Assembly (NCBI GenBank): GCA_046292385.1
Contig: JBKBRF010000016.1
Coordinates: 66,941 to 130,940 of the forward strand
Direction: 5' to 3'
Source of the DNA: Armatimonadota bacterium
Lineage (GTDB): Bacteria; Armatimonadota; SYMT01
DNA length: 64,000 nucleotides
The position numbers were made by a program, and so were the translations under genes. A model generated the notes under the pieces. The model searched no databases. It saw only the letters and a list, made by a program, of their open reading frames with translations, and was not told the DNA's origin. Below are positions 17,788 to 25,872 of the stretch, in pieces (the first letter of the stretch is position 1; each line of letters begins with the position of its first letter).

Positions 17788-18795
17788 ATGCAAAGAACAC
17801 ACACTCGCGCGGCGCTCGCCGCCCTCTTCGTGGCCTGCGGCCTCGGCCTGAGTGCCTGCAACGGCAACTCCGCCGAGGGCGGCCCCGGCAACGCTGCTAA
17901 CGGCACCCCCGCCTCGGCCGGCGGCAACGGCAAGAGCTACAAGCTCGCCGCGACGGTTCCTACCTTCAACCACCCGTTCTTCGTCTCCATGAAGCGGGGT
18001 CTCGAGGACGAGGCGCAGAAGGCCGGCTCCGAGATCAGCGTGAACGACGGCAAGAACGACGCCCAGGCGCAGATCTCGCAGATGGAGACGTTCGCGGTGC
18101 AGCAGGTAGACGGGATCATTCTCTGCCCCACTGAGACCGACTCCTTGCCGCCGGGCGTGCAGCACGCCAACCAGAAGAACATTCCGGTTATCACAGTGAA
18201 CCGCCGCGTTTCCGCGGGTGACGTGGTGACTTACGTCGGCGCGGACGACGTCGAAGGCGGCCGGCTCCAGGGCCGCGCCGTGATCGACGCGCTGCCGAAG
18301 GGTGGCAAGATCCTGCTCCTGCAGGGCGTCATCGGCTCCTCCCCGCAGCGCGACCGCGAGGCGGGCCTGCTGGAAGTGCTGAAGGGCCGGCCGGAGTACG
18401 AGATCGTCTCCCGCGCGCCGTATGACTTCGACCGCACCAAGGGCGTTTCCGTGATGGAGACGGCGCTGAACCAGTTCCCGAAGGGCGCCATCGACTGCGT
18501 GGTGGCCCAGTCCGACGACGGCGCGCTGGCGGCCGCCGACGTGGCGGGCCAGCGGGGCCGCACGGAGCTGAAGATCATCGGCTTCAACGGCGAGTCGGCG
18601 GCATTCGATGCGATCACGGCCGGGAAGATCTACGCGACGGTGCTCCAGGATGCGGAGACCCAGGGACGCGAGGCGGTGAAGGCGACCCTGGCCCACCTGA
18701 ACGGCGAGCAGGTGAAGAAGGAGATCATCACTCCGCTCTACCTGATCAAGAAGGACAACATCGGCGAGCACAAGCCGGCGTGGCAGAGTAACTAA
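17788..18795 (+). CDS. Sugar ABC transporter substrate-binding lipoprotein (RbsB-like)
   Basis: Lipobox LSAC, NHPFF, YVGADDVEGG, IIGFNG, ATVLQ. Confidence 0.93.
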   Translation: MQRTHTRAALAALFVACGLGLSACNGNSAEGGPGNAANGTPASAGGNGKSYKLAATVPTFNHPFFVSMKRGLEDEAQKAGSEISVNDGKNDAQAQISQMETFAVQQVDGIILCPTETDSLPPGVQHANQKNIPVITVNRRVSAGDVVTYVGADDVEGGRLQGRAVIDALPKGGKILLLQGVIGSSPQRDREAGLLEVLKGRPEYEIVSRAPYDFDRTKGVSVMETALNQFPKGAIDCVVAQSDDGALAAADVAGQRGRTELKIIGFNGESAAFDAITAGKIYATVLQDAETQGREAVKATLAHLNGEQVKKEIITPLYLIKKDNIGEHKPAWQSN

Positions 18796-18877
18796 GCGGG
18801 TGAACGCGAGAGGGTGAGAGTGGGAGACCCCACGCCCGCTCGCCTCCCTCATTCACCAGCGGAATGGCGCCCCTTCT

Positions 18878-20173
18878 CTATCCGGAGAGGGGGCGCTTCT
18901 CCGTACCAGGCCCCTGCAGGTCTGCCGTGATCGGCAGCGACTCGGCCCGCTCCGGCGGTGCGGAAGCGGGCCGGGGCAGGTCGGCCGTCGTCTCCGGCGC
19001 CGCCGCCGACGGAAGCGGAAGGTCTTTGAGGCTCGCGGTGACGGACTCGATGACCGTAATGGCGAGCTCAACCGTGCGCGTTACCTCGGCGCGCTCGAAG
19101 TAGCGCCGGCCCAGAAGGCTCCGAAGCAGCGGCAGAATGGAGCGCAGCCGCGGGTCAGGATCCTGTTCCACAAATCCGAGCAGCAGCTCCAGCGAACGCA
19201 GACGAACTTCGGTCGGAGAGCTCTCGATCAGATCTGCTAATCCCGGTAGGGCGTCGGCGCCGATCTTCCGGAGCAGCTCCCCAGCTCGCCAGACCGCTTC
19301 CGGGCTGCCCCCAGCAAAGATCTGGGCGAGCGCGGGCGCAGCACCCGGTCCGAGCTCGGCCAGAGCGGTCCCAGCATTCACTCGCACCTGGCTGTCCGGG
19401 TCCTCCAGCGCGCGGCAGAGGGCCGGGGCGGCGCGGGGGCTTCCGAGGCGGCCGAGGGCGACCGCCGCGTGGCGGCGGACTCCGGCATCCGGATCGCGCA
19501 GGGCGCGGCCCAGCACCGGGAGGGCGGTCGCCTCGCCGATCTCCCCCAGCGCCTTCGCCGCCTCCCGCCGCAGCTCCGCCGCCCCGTGCTCCAGCGTGCG
19601 GGCGAGCCGCGGCACCGCGCGGGGATCGCCGATCTTTCCGAGTGCCGCGATCGTCTCCACGCGCAGGTCGACCGGCTGCTGCTCCATCGCGTCGATCAGC
19701 GGGTCGAGCGCCGCCGGCCCGAGCCGGCCGAGCGCGCGCACCACCTCCCGGCGCAGCAGCGGGTCCGGATCGTCCAGCCGCGCCGCGAGCGCCGGGACCG
19801 CGGACGGCTCCCCGATGGCGCCTAGCGCCGTCACGGCGGACCAGCGCGTGCCCGGGTCCGGACCACCGAGAGCGGCGCAGAGCCCCGGCACAGCGTCCGG
19901 ATGCCGGATGGCGCCGAGAGCCCGCGCGGCCGCCTGCTGCAGGAACCGATCGCCCGCCGCGAGCGCGCCGAGGAGCGCGGGTACGGCGCGTGCGTCGGCG
20001 ATCTCCCCGAGGATCTGGGCGGCGTGTCGGCGGCGCTCCACGGCCCCCTCCGCCACCGCCGCGCAGAGTGGCTCCACCGCCTCCGCCCCGAGCCCCCGCA
20101 GTAGCTCCGTCGCGGCCAGCCGCCGCTCGTAGTCGAGGCAGCCGAGTGCCTCCAGCGCGTCGTCCAGCGTCAC
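18878..20173 (-). CDS. HEAT (PBS-lyase-like) repeat protein 4 of array, triple-LPxP tail
   Basis: Repeated A..ALG.IG...AVPAL...L.DPD units. Confidence 0.9.
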   Translation of the reverse strand: MTLDDALEALGCLDYERRLAATELLRGLGAEAVEPLCAAVAEGAVERRRHAAQILGEIADARAVPALLGALAAGDRFLQQAAARALGAIRHPDAVPGLCAALGGPDPGTRWSAVTALGAIGEPSAVPALAARLDDPDPLLRREVVRALGRLGPAALDPLIDAMEQQPVDLRVETIAALGKIGDPRAVPRLARTLEHGAAELRREAAKALGEIGEATALPVLGRALRDPDAGVRRHAAVALGRLGSPRAAPALCRALEDPDSQVRVNAGTALAELGPGAAPALAQIFAGGSPEAVWRAGELLRKIGADALPGLADLIESSPTEVRLRSLELLLGFVEQDPDPRLRSILPLLRSLLGRRYFERAEVTRTVELAITVIESVTASLKDLPLPSAAAPETTADLPRPASAPPERAESLPITADLQGPGTEKRPLSG

Positions 20174-20192
20174 TCCCCTTCCTGCACGATCA

Positions 20193-21131
20193 TTACCCGC
20201 CCGTGCCGGGTCGATGCGTCTCTTCCGGCTCCGCCGCCGGGCGGGGCAGGGTTTCTCCCGAGGGACGGGGGCTCTCCGCCGGGAGCGGGAGCGCGGCGGG
20301 GTCGGTTACCGCGGATGAGGGCCGCGGAAGGGCATGGATCCCCTCGGTCCGCGTCTCGATCAGGCGGATCAGCTCGCGGCAGACACCGGGGAAGCGGTCC
20401 CACCCGGCGGAGCGCGCGAGGGCGAGCTCTCGCAGGCCGGGGATGAGCGCGCGCAGGGCCGGGTCCGGATCCCGCTCTGCGATGCTCCGGAGCGAGAGCA
20501 CCGCCGCGAGGGCGACGTCGCCCTGCCCCCGCCCGGCCGCCTCCATCAGCGCCGGGGCCGAGCGCGCATCTCCCACCTGGCCGAGGGCGGCGGCGGCGGC
20601 GTACCGGAGCTGGAAGTCGGGGTCGGTGAGCAGCGGCTGTAAGGCAGGCACCGCTGCCTCGCCGCCGGCATCCGCCAGGGCGTGGACCGCCTGCACGCGC
20701 ACCCACAGCAGGTCGCCGAGCAGCCGGGACAGCCGGGGCACGACCGAAGCGTCTCCCAGTTGCCCTACCGCGCGGGCTGCGGCAGCGCGGACGTGCGGAT
20801 AGGGGTCGTCCAGCGCCTTCAGGAGCTGCGGGAGGGTCTCCGCCGCTTTCAGCCGCGCCAACCCCTCCGCGCAGAGGGTCCGGGTCCACATCCGCTCCGA
20901 GTCGACGGCCAGGAGCGCCTGCGCCAGGGCGGTGGCAACCTCCTCCCCGCCCAGCTCGCAGAGGGCGTCCAGGGCCGCCCGCCGGACCCGCTCCTGGCTA
21001 TCCCGCAGGGCAGAGAGGAGCGGCGGCACGGCGGCCGGATCGCCCCGCTCCCCCAGCAGCCGGGCCACGGCGGCCCGCTGCCGGATGTCCCCCGTGCGGA
21101 GGTGTTGTACGGCGTTCGCCAGCTCGTCCAT
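20193..21131 (-). CDS. HEAT repeat protein 3 of array, triple-LPxP tail
   Basis: GDPAAVPPLLSALRD, VRAAAARAVGQLGD units. Confidence 0.9.
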   Translation of the reverse strand: MDELANAVQHLRTGDIRQRAAVARLLGERGDPAAVPPLLSALRDSQERVRRAALDALCELGGEEVATALAQALLAVDSERMWTRTLCAEGLARLKAAETLPQLLKALDDPYPHVRAAAARAVGQLGDASVVPRLSRLLGDLLWVRVQAVHALADAGGEAAVPALQPLLTDPDFQLRYAAAAALGQVGDARSAPALMEAAGRGQGDVALAAVLSLRSIAERDPDPALRALIPGLRELALARSAGWDRFPGVCRELIRLIETRTEGIHALPRPSSAVTDPAALPLPAESPRPSGETLPRPAAEPEETHRPGTGG

Positions 21132-21137
21132 CGGCTC

Positions 21138-21833
21138 TTACCCTCCGTCGCTCACCCGCGGCAGGTCGGAGCAGTCCCGCGGCGGGACGGCCGGAATCGG
21201 CAGCGCGTCTCCGGAGCGATCCGCGGCGGCGGGAACCGGCAGGTCGTGGAGCGACTGCGTGGCCCGCTCGATCGCCCGTGCCGCTTTCGCCATCTCCCGC
21301 CGCTCCGCCCGGCCGGTGAGCCAGTACTCCGCTCGTGCCGTCAGCGGTGGGAGCGCCAGCCGAAGGGCCAGGGTGGGCGCGGTGCGCGCCAGCTCCGCCA
21401 GACCCGCCGCCGCCTGGCAGCGCACCACCACGTCCCGGTCCTCGATCGCCCGGGCCAGTGCCCGGATGGCGACCGGCTCCGACAGCCTTCGCAGCGTCAG
21501 GACGGCGCGCCGGCGCACCTCCACCGAGCCGGTCTCCGCGGCCCGCGCCAGCACGCCGGTCGCGCCGAGTGCCAGCAGCGCCTCCGCGGAGCGCTCACGG
21601 ACCAGCGCGTGTCGGTCGTCCAGGGCCTCTTCCAGCGCCGGGACCGCCGCGGGATCTCCAATCTGGCCGAGCACCGTGGCGGCCCGCCAGCGAGCCCGGA
21701 CCGATCCGGTCCGCAGCAGCTCGCAAAGCCCCGGCACCGCCGCGCCGCCGCTCGCCGTCAGGAGCTCGGCCGCGCGGCTGGCGCGCCACCGGTAGTCGCC
21801 CGCAAGCTCCTGCAGCGCTTCGGAGACCGTCAT
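21138..21833 (-). CDS. HEAT repeat protein 2 of array, triple-LPxP tail
   Basis: AATVLGQIGDPAAVPALEEALDD. ATGA overlap with the upstream gene. Confidence 0.88.
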   Translation of the reverse strand: MTVSEALQELAGDYRWRASRAAELLTASGGAAVPGLCELLRTGSVRARWRAATVLGQIGDPAAVPALEEALDDRHALVRERSAEALLALGATGVLARAAETGSVEVRRRAVLTLRRLSEPVAIRALARAIEDRDVVVRCQAAAGLAELARTAPTLALRLALPPLTARAEYWLTGRAERREMAKAARAIERATQSLHDLPVPAAADRSGDALPIPAVPPRDCSDLPRVSDGG

Positions 21834-23230
21834 CCGCGTGCCCCGCCCTCTCCCGGGCCCGCCGGCCGGGGCAGTCCCTCGGCGAATGCGGGAGCTTCCG
21901 CCGGCCGGGGCAGCGTCTCCTCGCTACCCGCCAAGGCCTGCGATGGGATCGGCAGGTCCTTCAGGCCCGCGGTCCGCGCTTCGATCTCCCGCAGGACCGC
22001 CTGGTAGATCTCCCCACCCGGCTCCAGTCCCCAGCGCGTGCGACCGCAGAGCCGCCCCAGCGCAGGGACGGCGCTGCGCAGCCCCGGCGACGGGCAGTCT
22101 CCCGCGAGGCGCAGCAGCGCCGCGGCGGCCCGCTGGCGCGCCTCCGGCAGGTCGTGGGAAAGGGTCCGGACGATCCCCGGTATCCAGCGCGGCTCATCGT
22201 CTCCCAGCTCGACCACCGCCAGCGCGGCGGCACCGGGAGCCCCCGCCGCCGCGGCGAACGGCCGCAGCCACTCCAGCGCGCGCGCGTCCCCCAGCTTCCC
22301 CAGCGCCAGCGCCCCAGCCTCCTGCAGCCGGGTCTCGCTCTCCTGCAGCAGCCGGACCAGCGCGTCGAGAGCCCGCGGGTCGCCGATCTCCCCGAGGAGG
22401 CGGGCGATCTCGGCGCGCACCAGGTCGGGCCCGCCGCCGAGCGATCCGCAGAGGGCGGGCACCGCGGGCGAGCCGATGGCGACCAGCGCCCGTCCGGCGA
22501 GGGTGGAGGTCATTCCCGCCAGCAGCCCGCGCTCGTGAAGCTGTTCGATCAGCAGCGGCACCCCGCGCTCGCCGAAGGAAGCGAGCGCGCTCACTCGCGC
22601 TGCCAGCGGGTCCTCGCCCTCTTCCCAGGTGACCCGGCAGAGCACCGGGATCGACTCGACGTCTCCGAGCCGCGCCAGCGCCGTCAACGCCGCCTCGCGG
22701 TTGACGTAGGGACTGTTCCCGGAGGCCGCCTTGCGGAGCACCGGCACCGCCTCGGCGGCACCGAGCCGCCCGAGCGCCTCGATCACCTGGGAGCGGTCGT
22801 CGAACTCCCAGCCGCGCATCGCCTGGATCAGCGCGGGCACCGCCGCCGGATCCCCGATCTTCCCCAGTGCCTCCGCGGCGCGCGGGCGCGTGAAGCGGTC
22901 GCCCCGTTTGAGCGCCTGCAGCAGCGCGGGGACGGCCGACGGGTCGCCGAGCTCCCCCAGCGCCAGCGCCGCCTGTTCCCGCAGGGGCCCTTCCCGGTCG
23001 CGGAGCATCCGCGTGAGGGCGGGGACTGACGCGGGGTCGCGGAGCGCGGCGAGCGCGGCCGCCGCTCCCCAGCGCGTGCTCAGGCCGCCCTTCACCACTG
23101 CCTCGCAGAGCGCCGGCACCGCGGCGGGCCCGATCGAGATCAGCTTGCCGACCGCGCGGTCGCGCCGCCCCGATCCGGGAAAGGCGAGCTCCCCAATCCA
23201 CTTTTCCAGCTCGTCAGCCGCTGCCGTCAT
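21830..23230 (-). CDS. HEAT repeat protein 1 of array, triple-LPxP tail
   Basis: Start MTAAADELE with GGGAGG RBS. Many AAEALGKIGDPAAVPAL units. Confidence 0.9.
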   Translation of the reverse strand: MTAAADELEKWIGELAFPGSGRRDRAVGKLISIGPAAVPALCEAVVKGGLSTRWGAAAALAALRDPASVPALTRMLRDREGPLREQAALALGELGDPSAVPALLQALKRGDRFTRPRAAEALGKIGDPAAVPALIQAMRGWEFDDRSQVIEALGRLGAAEAVPVLRKAASGNSPYVNREAALTALARLGDVESIPVLCRVTWEEGEDPLAARVSALASFGERGVPLLIEQLHERGLLAGMTSTLAGRALVAIGSPAVPALCGSLGGGPDLVRAEIARLLGEIGDPRALDALVRLLQESETRLQEAGALALGKLGDARALEWLRPFAAAAGAPGAAALAVVELGDDEPRWIPGIVRTLSHDLPEARQRAAAALLRLAGDCPSPGLRSAVPALGRLCGRTRWGLEPGGEIYQAVLREIEARTAGLKDLPIPSQALAGSEETLPRPAEAPAFAEGLPRPAGPGEGGARG

Positions 23231-23359
23231 CACCCTCCCGTTCGCCGGCCGGCCGCCGGGTTCCCCTCTCAGAGGTTCTCTCAGAGGTGGGAACGACTTT
23301 CGCGCAGAATCGGTCCGGGAAAGCGGGTAATAGCTTCCGGTGGAGCTGGAGTACGGGAC

Positions 23360-23812
23360 GTGACGCTGACTTGTGGGATTCTGCCGGCCGTCGAAGATCC
23401 GGACGAGGCCGACCTGCTCCGGACGCTGAAGGCGGTGCTCACGACGGACCTGGACGAGGACTACCTGATCCTCCAGGCTTCCGAGGAGCCGTGCCGCTAC
23501 CTGCAGGCGCGCCGGGACTGGACCGACTCGTTCCTGGTGGAATACCGGGACGGCGCTGCCGGCCGGCATTTCCGCTACAACACCGCCAGCCCGGCGCTGA
23601 CGCAGTCGCTCTTCCTGAGCTACCTCCGCGGCGACGACCAGTGGCGCACCGCCGTGCTGTGGCGGGACATCTCCGACGCGTTCGAGGACCTCCGCAGCGA
23701 GCGCGCGAAGGAGTTTCGCGAGTCGATGCCGGAGCAGGCGTTCCGGCGTGACCCGCTGCCGCCCGAGTGGTACCGGGACATGGTCAATCGCGAGGCGTTC
23801 GATCCGGAGTGA
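23360..23812 (+). CDS. Hypothetical protein
   Basis: Open frame with coding-like composition (YLQA...FLVEYRDG...HFR...FLSYL...WR). Start uncertain. Confidence 0.7.
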   Translation: MTLTCGILPAVEDPDEADLLRTLKAVLTTDLDEDYLILQASEEPCRYLQARRDWTDSFLVEYRDGAAGRHFRYNTASPALTQSLFLSYLRGDDQWRTAVLWRDISDAFEDLRSERAKEFRESMPEQAFRRDPLPPEWYRDMVNREAFDPE

Positions 23813-23844
23813 CCGCCGCTCGGAAGCGGCCAGGAGATACCTCG

Positions 23845-24540
23845 ATGGACGATAACACGCCGCACCCCTTGAACGTGCCGGGCCCGTTCTACGTGGAGGA
23901 CGGATGCTGCGTGGCGTGTATGGTGCCTCACCTGATCGCCCCGGATCTGATGGGATTTGATGAGGAATCTTCTCATTGCTTCGTCCGACAGCAGCCCTCG
24001 AGCCCGGAGGCGGTGACGCGAGCGATCTTCGCGGTCCGGATCTCCGAAGTGGGGTGCCTCCGGTATGGCGGTACGGATCCCGACATCCTGCGGCGGTTCG
24101 CGGAGCTGGGCGAGGCGGGCGCCTGCGACCACGCGCCGCCGCCGGGCGCCGGCTTCGTGCTGCGCAATCACGTCTCGTTCGAGGCTCCGCCTGGAATGGA
24201 CCTGGAATCGCTTGCGGAAAGGCTGCGCGGCCGGCTCGCTGCCAACCTGAAGCGCTACTCCGGGTTCCAGTTGACTCCCGTCACGCAGGAGGGTCCGGAG
24301 CTGAGGTTCAGCGTGGCCTGGTTTCAGGGCCAGTTTCGTCCCTACTGGATTGGCCCCGGGGAGCTGGGCACCCATCGCACGCTCATTCGCCACTCACCGG
24401 CCGCTATGCCGGGCAGCGTGTCGATGACCCTGGAGCTGGACGAGTGGCTCAAGTCTGAACCTGCGTTCCGCGAGATACGGTGGTATACGGCCGACCAGTG
24501 GAAGCGCCAGAGCGACGACTGGCAGCCGCTTCCGTATTGA
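23845..24540 (+). CDS. Ferredoxin-like N-terminal domain protein
   Basis: AGGAG RBS. NVPGPFYVEDGCCVACMVP..APDL...C...QP...CLRYGG. Confidence 0.75.
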   Translation: MDDNTPHPLNVPGPFYVEDGCCVACMVPHLIAPDLMGFDEESSHCFVRQQPSSPEAVTRAIFAVRISEVGCLRYGGTDPDILRRFAELGEAGACDHAPPPGAGFVLRNHVSFEAPPGMDLESLAERLRGRLAANLKRYSGFQLTPVTQEGPELRFSVAWFQGQFRPYWIGPGELGTHRTLIRHSPAAMPGSVSMTLELDEWLKSEPAFREIRWYTADQWKRQSDDWQPLPY

Positions 24541-24717: not shown

Positions 24718-25872
24718 ATGCTACGTACGACGGATTCCCCTGGCCAGGAGACGCGCTACGACGCGGAGACGGTGCGCAAGGTCACGGCGCTCGCCCAGCA
24801 GCTTCAGGATCGGCAGCAGGAGACGCTGACCGCTCGGCAGATCGAGGAGATCGGCGGAGAAGTGGGGCTGGCGCCGGGGTTCATCCGACAGGCGCTTGCA
24901 CGGCTGCGCCAGACCCCCGCGGATGAGCTGGAGCGACAGCGCCGGGCCGAGTTCAAGGAGCTGCTCGCCGCCTGGCTCTTCACAGCCTTCTGGGGCGCCG
25001 CCGCCTGGTTTCTCCGATTCGACACCGGCTGGGTAAACGGGTTCACCACCGTGGTGGCGCCGGCTCCCCTGGCGCTCCTGCTCGGGTTTCTCACCGGCAA
25101 AGACCGCGCCGGCGCCTGCGCCGGCCTGGCACTGATGGCGACACTGGCACCCACCTTCCATCACGAGTACCTGAGGATGAGTCATGAATTCAACGGCCTG
25201 GGGTACGTCGTCTTCGGAGGGCCGGTGGCGGCGATCCTGGGATGGCAGGGCGCCCGGCTCCGATCCCACTTCTTTCCTCGCAAAGACGCTCCCCGGACTC
25301 CGCTGGGTCGAGCGGAGCTACTGGACCTCCTCTTCTCACTCCAGTCCCAGCTTGAGGGGCAGCGGCAGCGTCGGGCATTTTTGAGTGTAGACGTGGTCGG
25401 CTCCACCGCGATGAAGCAGGACGCCACGGACCTGGCGGCGGAGCACTCCTTCAACCGGTACCGCGAGTGGGTGGAGGGCATCGTCAGCGGAGAAGGCGGC
25501 GAGGTCCAGAGCGCCGCCGGGGACGGGCTGATGGCGATGTTCCCGGATGAGGCGCGGGCGCTGCGGGCGGCGCGGCAACTGCAGGATGGCCTGGATCGCT
25601 TCAACACGGAGAGCAACCGGCTCCCGCGCCCTTTCCGGCTGCGGTGCGGCGTGAGCGCCGGTGAAGTACCGCTGGAGCCGGGCCGGCCCCTCGGGCACCT
25701 GCAGAGCGCCGTCATCGACCGGGCGGCGGTGCTCCAGAAGAGCGCCCGGCCGGGCGAAGTCGTGGTTGGCGGCGAGGCGGTGGCCGCAGCGCTCCTGGAG
25801 CTCGGTGCCGTCACCCCCGCTCCGGGCGCGACTCCTGAGTCGCCCGCGTTTGTCTGGCACCGCAGCGCGTAA
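24718..25872 (+). CDS. Membrane-bound class III nucleotide cyclase-like protein (non-canonical active site)
   Basis: About 4 TM helices, then FLSVDVVGST, AAGDGLMAMF, LRCGVSAG. Confidence 0.85.
   Translation: MLRTTDSPGQETRYDAETVRKVTALAQQLQDRQQETLTARQIEEIGGEVGLAPGFIRQALARLRQTPADELERQRRAEFKELLAAWLFTAFWGAAAWFLRFDTGWVNGFTTVVAPAPLALLLGFLTGKDRAGACAGLALMATLAPTFHHEYLRMSHEFNGLGYVVFGGPVAAILGWQGARLRSHFFPRKDAPRTPLGRAELLDLLFSLQSQLEGQRQRRAFLSVDVVGSTAMKQDATDLAAEHSFNRYREWVEGIVSGEGGEVQSAAGDGLMAMFPDEARALRAARQLQDGLDRFNTESNRLPRPFRLRCGVSAGEVPLEPGRPLGHLQSAVIDRAAVLQKSARPGEVVVGGEAVAAALLELGAVTPAPGATPESPAFVWHRSA

Follow-up and report, generated by a model that had tools for sequence, protein, structure and literature searches.

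Within the 64,000-nucleotide stretch of Armatimonadota DNA analysed here (the window), four genes run in one direction on the minus strand. Gene A (P0001, 21830..23230) encodes a protein of 466 aa, and gene B (P0002, 21138..21833), whose start overlaps the gene A stop by 4 nt, encodes one of 231 aa. These are followed after 6 nt by gene C (P0003, 20193..21131; 312 aa) and after a further 19 nt by gene D (P0004, 18878..20173; 431 aa), which has a GTG start. The longest ORF for gene A begins at 23569; the start on record gives 466 aa, and a protein of exactly this sequence is a representative in the protein library that we searched. The ORF list, translations and Pfam matches agree with the original prediction that the locus carries four co-oriented, closely packed genes for HEAT-repeat proteins with gaps of -4, 6 and 19 nt.

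All four products are HEAT-repeat proteins of the PBS-lyase type, a class with an alpha-solenoid fold of paired helices. HEAT_2 (PF13646) scores 152.5, 60.6, 127.8 and 174.7 bits for genes A to D (Pfam gathering score 27.7), and HEAT_PBS (PF03130) scores 33.8-127.6 bits (gathering score 20.9). The AF2 model of P0002 (mean pLDDT 94.0) is a helical solenoid of eleven helices spanning residues 3-197, with an N-terminus that begins inside a helix. Its best Foldseek matches in the PDB are artificial alphaRep HEAT proteins (E 2e-07, TM 0.54-0.57), and designed armadillo-peptide complexes are also among the matches. Inspection of the four sequences by eye revealed hydrophilic N-termini and, as had been claimed, neither a signal peptide nor a hydrophobic stretch that could span a membrane. 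Because nothing hydrophobic follows the C-terminal motifs described below, a sortase-type LPXTG signal or other C-terminal surface sorting signal was also rejected.

Each protein ends in the same tail module, which comprises a cap helix, a helix of the form RIE.xT..L and three Leu-Pro motifs in a 14-residue register. The sequence P.P.LR..LP.L precedes the IE..T helix in all four tails. On the minus strand, the end of this helix and the motifs LPIP, LPRP and LPRP of gene A occupy 21833..21994, and the motifs read LPVP, LPIP and LPRV in gene B (21141..21284), LPRP, LPLP and LPRP in gene C (20196..20357), and LPLP, LPRP and LPIT in gene D (18881..19042), just as first reported. No Pfam or NCBIfam model covers the module, in keeping with the earlier remark that it belongs to no named family. 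When searched alone at E<=10, the tails of A, B and D gave no Pfam-A or NCBIfam match, and the tail of C gave no Pfam-A match and a sole NCBIfam match, to TonB, at chance level (E 0.14).

Genes A to D are a small part of a large, expanded and undescribed family of HEAT proteins that share this fixed C-terminal module. The same genome holds 28 ORFs with the tail, mostly in tandem arrays, and therefore the proposed four-gene operon stands as a gene order but is not a self-contained unit, representing only 4 of the 28. A regular-expression search for three LP.[PVT] motifs spaced 6-18 residues apart yielded 51 matches among 73,223 six-frame ORFs of this genome; those in family members lie 0-26 residues from the ORF end, and the rest fall mid-ORF in unrelated frames. 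The tails are accordingly not a chance pattern. A library of 1.84 billion proteins contains 740 representatives of the family at E<=0.001. HEAT_2 is present in 136 of 150 family representatives, and the tail is also found on small zinc-ribbon-like proteins that have no HEAT body, as well as on a Spo0M-like protein and all three of its homologues found in metagenomes. The module is thus portable; the original prediction had recommended a search for carriers lacking HEAT repeats.

Conservation was assessed with 151 proteins, namely the four from the window and 147 that the library search had retrieved. Exactly three [LIVMF]P motifs are present in 114 of these, with four in 8, five in 1, two in 27 and one in 1. 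A spacing of exactly 14 residues separates motifs 1 and 2 in 98 of 123 proteins and motifs 2 and 3 in 99 of 123, or approximately 80% of cases. Both the count and the register are kept across hundreds of diverged proteins. Thus, the module is absent from the Pfam and NCBIfam models and its conservation extends well past the four paralogues, which were the two points on which the original prediction had staked its case. The most common second motifs are LPRP and LPLP, and the most common third motif is LPRV, so the last residue of a motif is not always Pro. A strict pattern for a Trp/Arg-rich C-terminal segment after the third motif is matched by 18 of the 151 proteins, and this segment could be a membrane-binding helix.

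Given a genomic G+C content of 69%, a composition that favours Pro, Ala and Arg, and the varied linkers between motifs in the paralogue alignment, the tail might be viewed as a proline-rich spacer or low-complexity remnant that is kept by descent and codon bias and has no specific ligand. We consider this very improbable. Among 26 paralogues that share only 28-38% identity with the first sequence, motifs 1 and 2 never vary in their Leu and first Pro. Two Pro residues are invariant across 150 proteins, and the spacing is constant to the degree just described. Moreover, the module is retained in different phyla and when attached to unrelated scaffolds.

A candidate partner is encoded outside the window, at the head of the largest tail array in the same genome. 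This gene (G000:C34:65759-67330; 523 aa) precedes eight tail-bearing HEAT genes of the same strand (C34:67455-77809). It resides on a different contig from the window array, which has no such neighbour, and for this reason was not visible in the window. [quoted passage not shown] The protein matches PF00012 with 83.6 bits (cut-off 20.6), the motifs IDLGTTN, DFGGGT and GGST are visible in its sequence, and its modelled NBD aligns with that of DnaK over 338 residues (Z 36.8, rmsd 2.4). The AF2 model (pLDDT 90.6) places an all-beta domain at residues ~378-523 after the NBD; the helical lid was not found in this model, in which the chain beyond residue 371 contains a single short helix (459-462). 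Canonical DnaK, HscA and HscC were rejected as identities given the missing lid and the low scores against NCBIfam models (112.9 bits for HscA, the best model, versus a cut-off of 620, and 74.2 bits for DnaK versus 648).

The C-terminal 153 aa of this protein, when searched alone, gave no Hsp70 substrate-binding domain by sequence. Its likeness to SBD-beta is suggested by a whole-chain structural alignment with a large rmsd: VIA-align superimposes model residues 1-519 on DnaK lacking SBD-alpha (Z 36.4, 446 residues aligned, rmsd 12.8), and also matches the lid-less Ssz1 over residues 1-518. Neither a J-domain gene nor a GrpE gene is conserved in the module formed by the HEAT and Hsp70-like genes, and so a canonical Hsp70 cycle is not assured. 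Specifically, a dedicated J-domain co-chaperone was not evident around 80 loci encoding relatives of the Hsp70-like protein, where only the HEAT partner family is conserved, and no DnaJ domain is present among 25 of the 26 Pfam families listed for the 150 tail-family representatives.

The association between Hsp70-like and tail genes recurs in other genomes of the phylum, including G005, G031 and G001 and, judging from match coordinates, G065, G156, G172, G163, G136 and G078. With the source genome counted, adjacency is seen in 10 of the 16 genomes carrying both genes; G002 and G003 have no tail gene beside the Hsp70-like gene. The original prediction also called for a search for a gene that co-occurs phylogenetically with the tail, and the close Hsp70-like gene, defined by an identity of 53% or more across the C-terminal 143 aa, emerged as such. 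Among 201 genomes, 16 hold both, 6 the tail only, 1 the Hsp70-like gene only and 178 neither, although the counts draw on some six families within a single phylum and lack independence. Tail-positive genomes without the close gene include G018 (98% complete, 4 tail matches), G066 (96%) and G129 (94%, 2 contigs). A more distant Hsp70-like clade (40-48% identity) is present in 10 of 10 genomes of one family (f7) and 6 of 8 of another (f27), and these genomes have no tail match.

Linkage of the tail family to this Hsp70-like clade extends across phyla, as revealed by the same sample of 80 loci, in which the downstream genes tested encode HEAT_2 proteins. LPx tails lie within 6 kb at all three Hsp70-like loci of Armatimonadales. 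In Gemmatimonadota, a gene whose tail has three LPR motifs lies immediately downstream at 18 of 22 loci, and three of the four misses have less than 1.4 kb of downstream DNA. The partners in G001 and Gemmatimonadota are full-length orthologues with 38% identity over 438 aa. In Acidobacteriota, a HEAT gene lies downstream at 14 of 21 loci, and its product closes with the same helix and three or four copies of (G)QLSL. The LPx loci group in one Hsp70-like clade (SH-aLRT 92) and the QLSL loci in another (99), and the tail-type labels require 6 changes on the Hsp70-like tree versus a shuffle mean of 19.3, with so few changes reached in 0 of 200 shuffles. Tail type therefore tracks the Hsp70-like tree and not the species tree.

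With this gene neighbourhood across several phyla in mind, we judge that the tail is most likely a handle for a lid-less Hsp70-type ATPase. The original prediction had envisioned a single common partner, such as a protease or ATPase, a compartment shell or a secretion component. The idea of one partner is retained and narrowed to the Hsp70-like candidate, although binding itself is something that we infer. Our favoured hypothesis, held with only moderate confidence, is that the whole family is engaged by a single dedicated, lid-less Hsp70-like ATPase through the shared tail, which would be the point of contact in preference to the HEAT body.

The alternative that the tail docks or targets its carriers to some other common partner (a protease, a secretion or membrane component, or a compartment), with the Hsp70-like gene being a general helper that travels with an ancestral member, must also be weighed. 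The absence of the close Hsp70-like gene from six tail-positive genomes, the location of most tail arrays (including that of the window) away from this gene, and the Trp/Arg-rich ends of some proteins would all suit such an arrangement, and two family members on contig C11 adjoin hslVU, though in convergent orientation. Nevertheless, we regard it as quite unlikely, as the HEAT partner is the one gene family conserved near the 80 Hsp70-like loci, the four proteins show no N-terminal signal peptide or hydrophobic stretch, and the shift in motif type with Hsp70-like clade is not predicted by a third-party receptor.

Another rival is that the ligand of the tail is a HEAT solenoid. The tail might strap down the solenoid of its own chain in cis, with an autoinhibitory or capping effect, or join those of paralogues in trans into head-to-tail assemblies. 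In this view the link to the Hsp70-like ATPase would be a functional one, for instance through release or remodelling of these contacts, and the ATPase would not be the primary receptor. A cis strap has precedent in the IBB segment of importin-alpha. HEAT and ARM folds bind extended peptides, as in the armadillo-peptide complexes retrieved by Foldseek, and a strict 14-residue register would suit a periodic surface such as that of a repeat protein. Furthermore, the monomer AF2 model gives the tail of P0002 pLDDT values of 69-79, not below 50. Docking of the tail on the HEAT body of the same protein may thus occur, and it fits these values at least as well as a free tail does. However, the Spo0M-like and zinc-ribbon-like carriers have no HEAT body, and so a cis contact cannot be general, and within the window the same tail is joined to bodies of very different length (231-466 aa). 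We therefore consider a HEAT-binding tail to be rather unlikely.

If the Hsp70-like ATPase is indeed the receptor, each Leu-Pro motif might occupy a peptide cleft in its beta domain, by analogy with LPRP and LPLP peptides in DnaK and LPPVK in HscA. The ATPase could then act on its partners in either of two ways. The variable HEAT bodies might be clients that are remodelled, as clathrin is by Hsc70, or they might be adaptors that bring other targets to the ATPase, following the logic of J-domain proteins without a J domain. A more elaborate proposal, which we offer tentatively, is a form of J-protein-independent Hsp70 targeting. In these Armatimonadales, about 30 HEAT adaptors, a few non-HEAT ones among them, would use a trivalent, substrate-mimicking tail to recruit one lid-less ATPase to some 30 targets or assemblies, and the ancestral one-to-one pair would survive in Gemmatimonadota (LPR) and Acidobacteriota (QLSL). 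Such a system would give bacteria an equivalent of the J-domain-protein network or of clathrin uncoating.

DnaK-derived paralogues whose substrate-binding parts are truncated are numerous in bacteria that have complex proteomes. One widespread clade of these DnaK derivates now gains a concrete and testable partner family, along with a candidate recognition motif of fixed number and register whose natural variants (LPRP-type and QLSL-type) change together with the ATPase clade. The tail module itself is newly defined relative to Pfam and NCBIfam. If binding does occur, a repeated tail, and not a J-domain protein, would direct an Hsp70 to native proteins, and there would be a reason why some Armatimonadota keep dozens of HEAT paralogues.

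Several known systems resemble parts of this arrangement. The PBS-lyase-type HEAT proteins CpcE/CpcF and NblB share repeat type PF03130, but their NCBIfam equivalogs were rejected as identities, since scores of 22-110 bits against cut-offs of 220-330 indicate likeness at the repeat level only (the best for genes A to D are 110.5 for NblB, cut-off 300, and 101.6 for CpcE, cut-off 330). Their models also do not match the C-terminal tail, and the phylum of the source organism is one that we take to be non-phototrophic. The armadillo-repeat exchange factors Fes1 and HspBP1 join a helical-repeat body that binds the Hsp70 NBD to a substrate-mimic segment, a likeness of architecture only: these proteins come from eukaryotes, the mimic segment lies at their N-terminus and does not consist of a triple motif, and no sequence relationship to the tail family was found. 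The candidate partner protein, with its NBD and lid-less beta domain, is itself one of the bacterial DnaK derivates in which substrate-binding parts are reduced or absent, and it resembles the lid-less Ssz1. What such paralogues do is described as an open question in a 2026 review (PMC13580251), whose section 6 and main-text wording mention neither a HEAT partner nor a recognition tail.

Proline-rich antimicrobial peptides such as pyrrhocoricin and ARV-1502 offer a parallel for the motifs. According to the portions of the report consulted, ARV-1502 occupies the DnaK substrate pocket via YLPRP, with Leu central, and its best-binding analogue has YLPLP (PMC8864165); LPRP and LPLP are likewise the second motifs seen most often here. 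Those are exogenous peptides acting on canonical DnaK, whereas endogenous tails would here engage a divergent, lid-less Hsp70. The Acidobacteriota tails, with (G)QLSL repeated three or four times, recall the Hsc70 site QLMLT at the C-terminus of the clathrin heavy chain. In the sections consulted, this site is a flexible segment on an alpha-solenoid protein, and the clathrin trimer presents three copies onto which Hsc70 clamps to remodel the assembly (PMC2830701). Clathrin and the HEAT proteins are not homologous, a single chain here carries all three motifs, an auxilin-like J protein was not found, and the HEAT proteins have no known assembly.

A further comparison is with HscA (Hsc66) and IscU, as covered in the parts of the source consulted (PMC8215388), where a specialised bacterial Hsp70 paralogue is encoded with its partner and binds only LPPVK, a short Leu-Pro motif within a native, folded protein. 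The present system differs in that the Hsp70-like protein scores far under the HscA cut-off and has no helical lid, the module has no HscB-like J protein, the motif occurs three times in a C-terminal tail instead of once in a loop, and there are about 28 candidate partners instead of one. What the two have in common is a specialised Hsp70 paralogue that is co-encoded and co-occurs with its partner, which in the present case is a candidate one.

Translation of the listed ORFs places four co-oriented HEAT-repeat genes on the reverse strand of the window, namely gene A (21830-23230, 466 aa), gene B (21138-21833, 231 aa), gene C (20193-21131, 312 aa) and gene D (18878-20173, 431 aa, with a GTG start). 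Their tight packing is as originally claimed, with a 4-nt overlap followed by gaps of 6 nt and 19 nt, and the tail sequences of the four proteins also read as they had been given. The frames are backed by a GC3-based gene call, and the 466-, 231- and 312-aa proteins occur unchanged in a public protein library. All four proteins match the Pfam models HEAT_2 and HEAT_PBS well over the gathering scores. Given that their scores against the NCBIfam models CpcE, CpcF and NblB are far under the cut-offs, an identity as phycobilin lyases was ruled out, and we regard them as PBS-type HEAT proteins. In the AF2 model of the gene B product (71 aligned sequences, pLDDT 94.0), residues 3-197 form a helical solenoid whose best PDB matches are the artificial alphaRep HEAT proteins.

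The array is flanked by a sugar ABC transporter on the opposite strand and by small unrelated ORFs, and a scan of 18600-23900 returned neither promoter-like nor terminator-like sites. Two genes on the forward strand lie upstream of the array. The product of 23845-24540 (231 aa) matches single-cluster ferredoxin weakly, and that of 24718-25872 (384 aa) has predicted membrane segments and no clear family; neither gene showed a link to the array in the other genomes examined. Among the sequencing runs listed, none was of RNA, and one soil run shared 0.05 of words.

The tail, a conserved C-terminal helix followed by three Leu-Pro (LPxP-type) motifs, is far more widespread than these four genes. 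With a profile built from the last 105 aa of the four proteins, a search of every six-frame ORF in the source genome (7.04 Mb, 69% G+C, 91 contigs) recovered 28 ORFs carrying the module at the extreme C-terminus, a count that was identical with a 26-sequence profile; a 29th, on contig C41, was recovered by regular expression only. Many of these ORFs lie in tandem arrays (eight genes each on contigs C34 and C3, four in the window, and two each on C11 and C28), and the others are single. A Pfam scan (E<=0.001) that took in 23 of the 24 non-window ORFs assigned HEAT_2 to 21, a Spo0M domain to one, and a weak zinc-ribbon match to one small protein. Across an alignment of 26 tails with 28-38% identity to the first sequence, motifs 1 and 2 never vary in their Leu or their first Pro.

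Two of the other arrays have features of their own. The eight tandem HEAT genes on C3 (G000:C3:113366-121353, reverse strand, extracted as locus L002, where G000 denotes the source genome) have near-uniform tails reading LPLP / LPRVGEAP / LPRV, seven of which carry one extra Arg before the stop while the eighth stops at LPRV; this array is younger and more homogeneous than that of the window. Separately, hslV and hslU (G000:C11:30768-32671) are convergent against the tail-bearing HEAT pair at C11:32708-34626, a neighbourhood that may be a coincidence.

Searched exhaustively by profile, a library of 1.84 billion representative proteins yielded 740 matches at E<=0.001, with 340 at E<=1e-10; a word-based search started from the tail of the gene C product (P0003) recovered the query alone. 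In a set of 151 proteins, exactly three [LIVMF]P motifs stand in register in 114, with four in 8, five in 1, two in 27 (some of which are fragments) and one in 1. Of the 123 proteins having three or more motifs, 98 keep a spacing of exactly 14 residues between motifs 1 and 2, and 99 do so between motifs 2 and 3. HEAT_2 is present in 136 members of a 150-protein set, which includes 147 new proteins of the 150 best library matches and excludes the gene D product (P0004). When the tails alone were compared with Pfam and NCBIfam at E<=10, there was no match save a chance-level TonB. With no tail model in these collections, and with motif count and spacing conserved beyond the four paralogues, the original prediction of a conserved tail without a named family holds on both points on which it could have failed.

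Some members extend further. Under a strict pattern, 18 of the 151 proteins have a Trp/Arg-rich segment beyond the third motif (e.g. '..WWQRLWRRLGR'), including P0038 (G000:C24:6391-7293), P0040, P0056, P0080, P0085, P0087, P0100, P0105 and others. This segment resembles a basic amphipathic helix, and it may contact membranes or nucleic acids.

The tail also occurs on proteins that lack HEAT repeats, as had been raised for checking. The clearest carrier is a 287-aa protein with a Spo0M domain (PF07070; G000:C2:157970-158833, equivalent to L007:5970-6833, reverse strand), which ends in the same helix and an FPIP/LPRP/LPRP tail. Three homologues from metagenomes (46-55% identity) all retain 'ALRP..DAL..LPIPS' together with one or more additional LP motifs, and a weaker relative with a tail match lies at G005:C19:61712-62521 in another Armatimonadota genome. 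Two small forward-strand proteins end in three LPxP-type motifs spaced as in the family tails: one of 145 aa with Cys pairs and the weak zinc-ribbon match (G000:C9:89225-89662, L008:6225-6662), and one of 171 aa, which is the ORF found by regular expression only (G000:C41:28383-28898).

Outside the window, the eight-gene tail-bearing HEAT array on C34 is directly preceded by a divergent Hsp70-like gene (G000:C34:65759-67330, equivalent to L001:5759-7330, forward strand) whose 523-aa product begins 'WAIDLGTTNT'. Pfam HSP70 matches this protein at 83.6 bits in the nucleotide-binding domain only, and the NCBIfam scores for HscA (112.9 bits) and DnaK (74.2) are both far under the cut-offs. [quoted passage not shown] By VIA-align, the model matches DnaK nucleotide-binding domains with Z 36.8 and, over residues 1-519, a DnaK construct without SBD-alpha (446 residues aligned) and the lid-less Ssz1. 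The beta domain as sole sequence query found no Hsp70, and therefore we consider its predicted identity as SBD-beta likely but not settled. The C-terminus of the protein ('..RLRVTY.IN.DRWLC.TVEDL....PVVRLR') is kept across phyla.

Across a sample of 201 Armatimonadota genomes, the tail (E<=1e-6) occurs in 22 and a close Hsp70-like relative, defined by at least 53% identity over the C-terminal 143 aa, in 17. Both are present in 16 genomes and neither in 178, with the Hsp70-like gene alone in one (G089) and the tail alone in six (G006, G018, G066, G129, G154 and G190; for G006 and G018 the search was repeated with the full profile). Among the 16 genomes having both, 10 have the two no more than approximately 2.5 kb apart on a single contig; G002 and G003 have other genes beside their Hsp70-like gene. 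The six genomes with the tail and no close Hsp70-like gene count against reading the tail as a handle for this ATPase. The tail might instead bind HEAT solenoids, either its own or that of a paralogue, and in the monomer model of the gene B product, where its pLDDT is 69-79, it may lie on its own HEAT body.

Hsp70-like proteins of a more distant clade (40-48% identity) are present in 10/10 genomes of family f7 and 6/8 of family f27, and in these genomes they were never found together with the tail. In Chthonomonas-type genomes (L028, L029, L030, L081 and L086), the gene after the distant relative encodes a TPR protein whose C-terminal part is a DUF4190 membrane segment, and a BadF/BcrA-like ATPase-looking gene lies next to the relative. 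The TPR/DUF4190 protein is a different partner for this sister clade. Because these relatives precede it and not a tail-bearing HEAT gene, the pairing is not general to the whole Hsp70-like family.

The case for a functional tie between the tail family and the close Hsp70-like clade extends beyond the phylum, as judged from 80 loci around Hsp70-like relatives. In 18 of 22 Gemmatimonadota loci, the gene immediately downstream and on the same strand encodes a protein of approximately 440-460 aa ending '..KLEARASLPRAA..(10)..TLPRAA..(10)..TLPRGS', and three of the four misses have too little downstream DNA. In 14 of 21 Acidobacteriota loci, the downstream gene ends in the same helix type, then three or four (G)QLSL motifs spaced 10-11 residues apart, which recall the QLMLT Hsc70 site of clathrin. 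The HEAT gene 3' of the Hsp70-like gene in L057-L078 and similar Acidobacteriota loci, in L062 (a Planctomycetota MAG) and in L101 (a Myxococcales MAG) ends 'RRAARQAIAEIQSRLPGASPGQLSLAGAEAGQLSLAQAEAGQLSLA'. No downstream tail gene was seen in 10 Chthonomonadales and six Cyanobacteria loci, and no third conserved gene family was found around the 80 loci.

The downstream genes that were tested encode HEAT_2 proteins. The one-to-one partner in the Armatimonadota genome G001 (L023:6414-7733) and that in a Gemmatimonadota locus (L036:11583-13004) are full-length orthologues with 38% identity over 438 aa, and they have in common an N-terminal domain of approximately 230 aa ('LFGPSQKEIW...TLDTYT...TRLRAP') that has no Pfam match and was not found in the source genome (tblastn, E<=1e-3).

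When 46 Hsp70-like proteins were placed in a tree, the loci with LPx tails formed one clade of Armatimonadales and Gemmatimonadota (SH-aLRT 92), the QLSL loci fell in another (99), and other Armatimonadota were placed elsewhere. Tail-type labels require 6 changes on this tree compared with 19.3 when shuffled, and none of 200 shuffles was as low, with the caveat that related genomes are not independent and thus the linkage and tree figures overstate the statistical weight. Regardless, the pair, the tail type and the clade co-vary across phyla, a pattern that would be difficult to account for if no functional tie existed, and we consider such a tie between the tail family and the Hsp70-like ATPase to be quite probable. 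The originally proposed common partner is thereby supported in part, having been sharpened by linkage and co-occurrence to an Hsp70-like candidate, with the binding itself being putative.

The substrate clefts of Hsp70 proteins accommodate short peptides in extended form with Leu or Pro at the centre. The three Leu-Pro motifs could be ligands for the cleft of the lid-less Hsp70-like ATPase, in which case the tail would be a handle shared by approximately 28 different bodies in the source genome, and the ATPase would either remodel the HEAT proteins or be carried by them to other targets. We lean only slightly towards this full statement, in which the tail is the contact with the ATPase. The module has no conserved J-domain or GrpE partner, and therefore the reaction cycle may differ from that of DnaK.

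Excerpts of published reports offer precedents for such recognition. ARV-1502 and pyrrhocoricin bind DnaK via YLPRP, with a YLPLP analogue as the best binder (PMC8864165), and LPPVK of IscU is described as the sole recognition motif of HscA (PMC8215388). The uncoating of vesicles involves Hsc70 clamping onto QLMLT at the C-terminus of clathrin, a solenoid protein (PMC2830701), and a flexible, substrate-mimicking segment of the armadillo-repeat protein Fes1 fills the Hsp70 pocket (PMC6615629).

PADLOC returned generic HEAT matches only, and none for the Hsp70-like or Spo0M-like proteins, which gives no support for a known defence system. In the available portions of their descriptions, NTP-dependent conflict systems join HSP70 with GTPases and tubulin and not with tail-bearing HEAT proteins (PMC7159879), and CoCoNuT systems looked unrelated. 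No description of the pair was found in the open-access literature, as represented by the accessible parts of sources including PMC3837014, PMC13580251 and PMC11019930. The bodies of the tail family are ordinary PBS-type HEAT repeats, and the Hsp70-like partner belongs among the 'DnaK derivates', whose functions are called an open question in the accessible section 6 of a 2026 review (PMC13580251). HscA-IscU and Hsc70-clathrin likewise already embody the principle that a dedicated Hsp70 reads a short motif in a native protein. As far as the open-access literature searched shows, four aspects are new: the tail module as such, the fixed arrangement of its three motifs at 14 residues, its pairing with a clade of lid-less Hsp70-like proteins in at least three phyla and in two versions of the motif, and its multiplication into dozens of paralogues in Armatimonadales.
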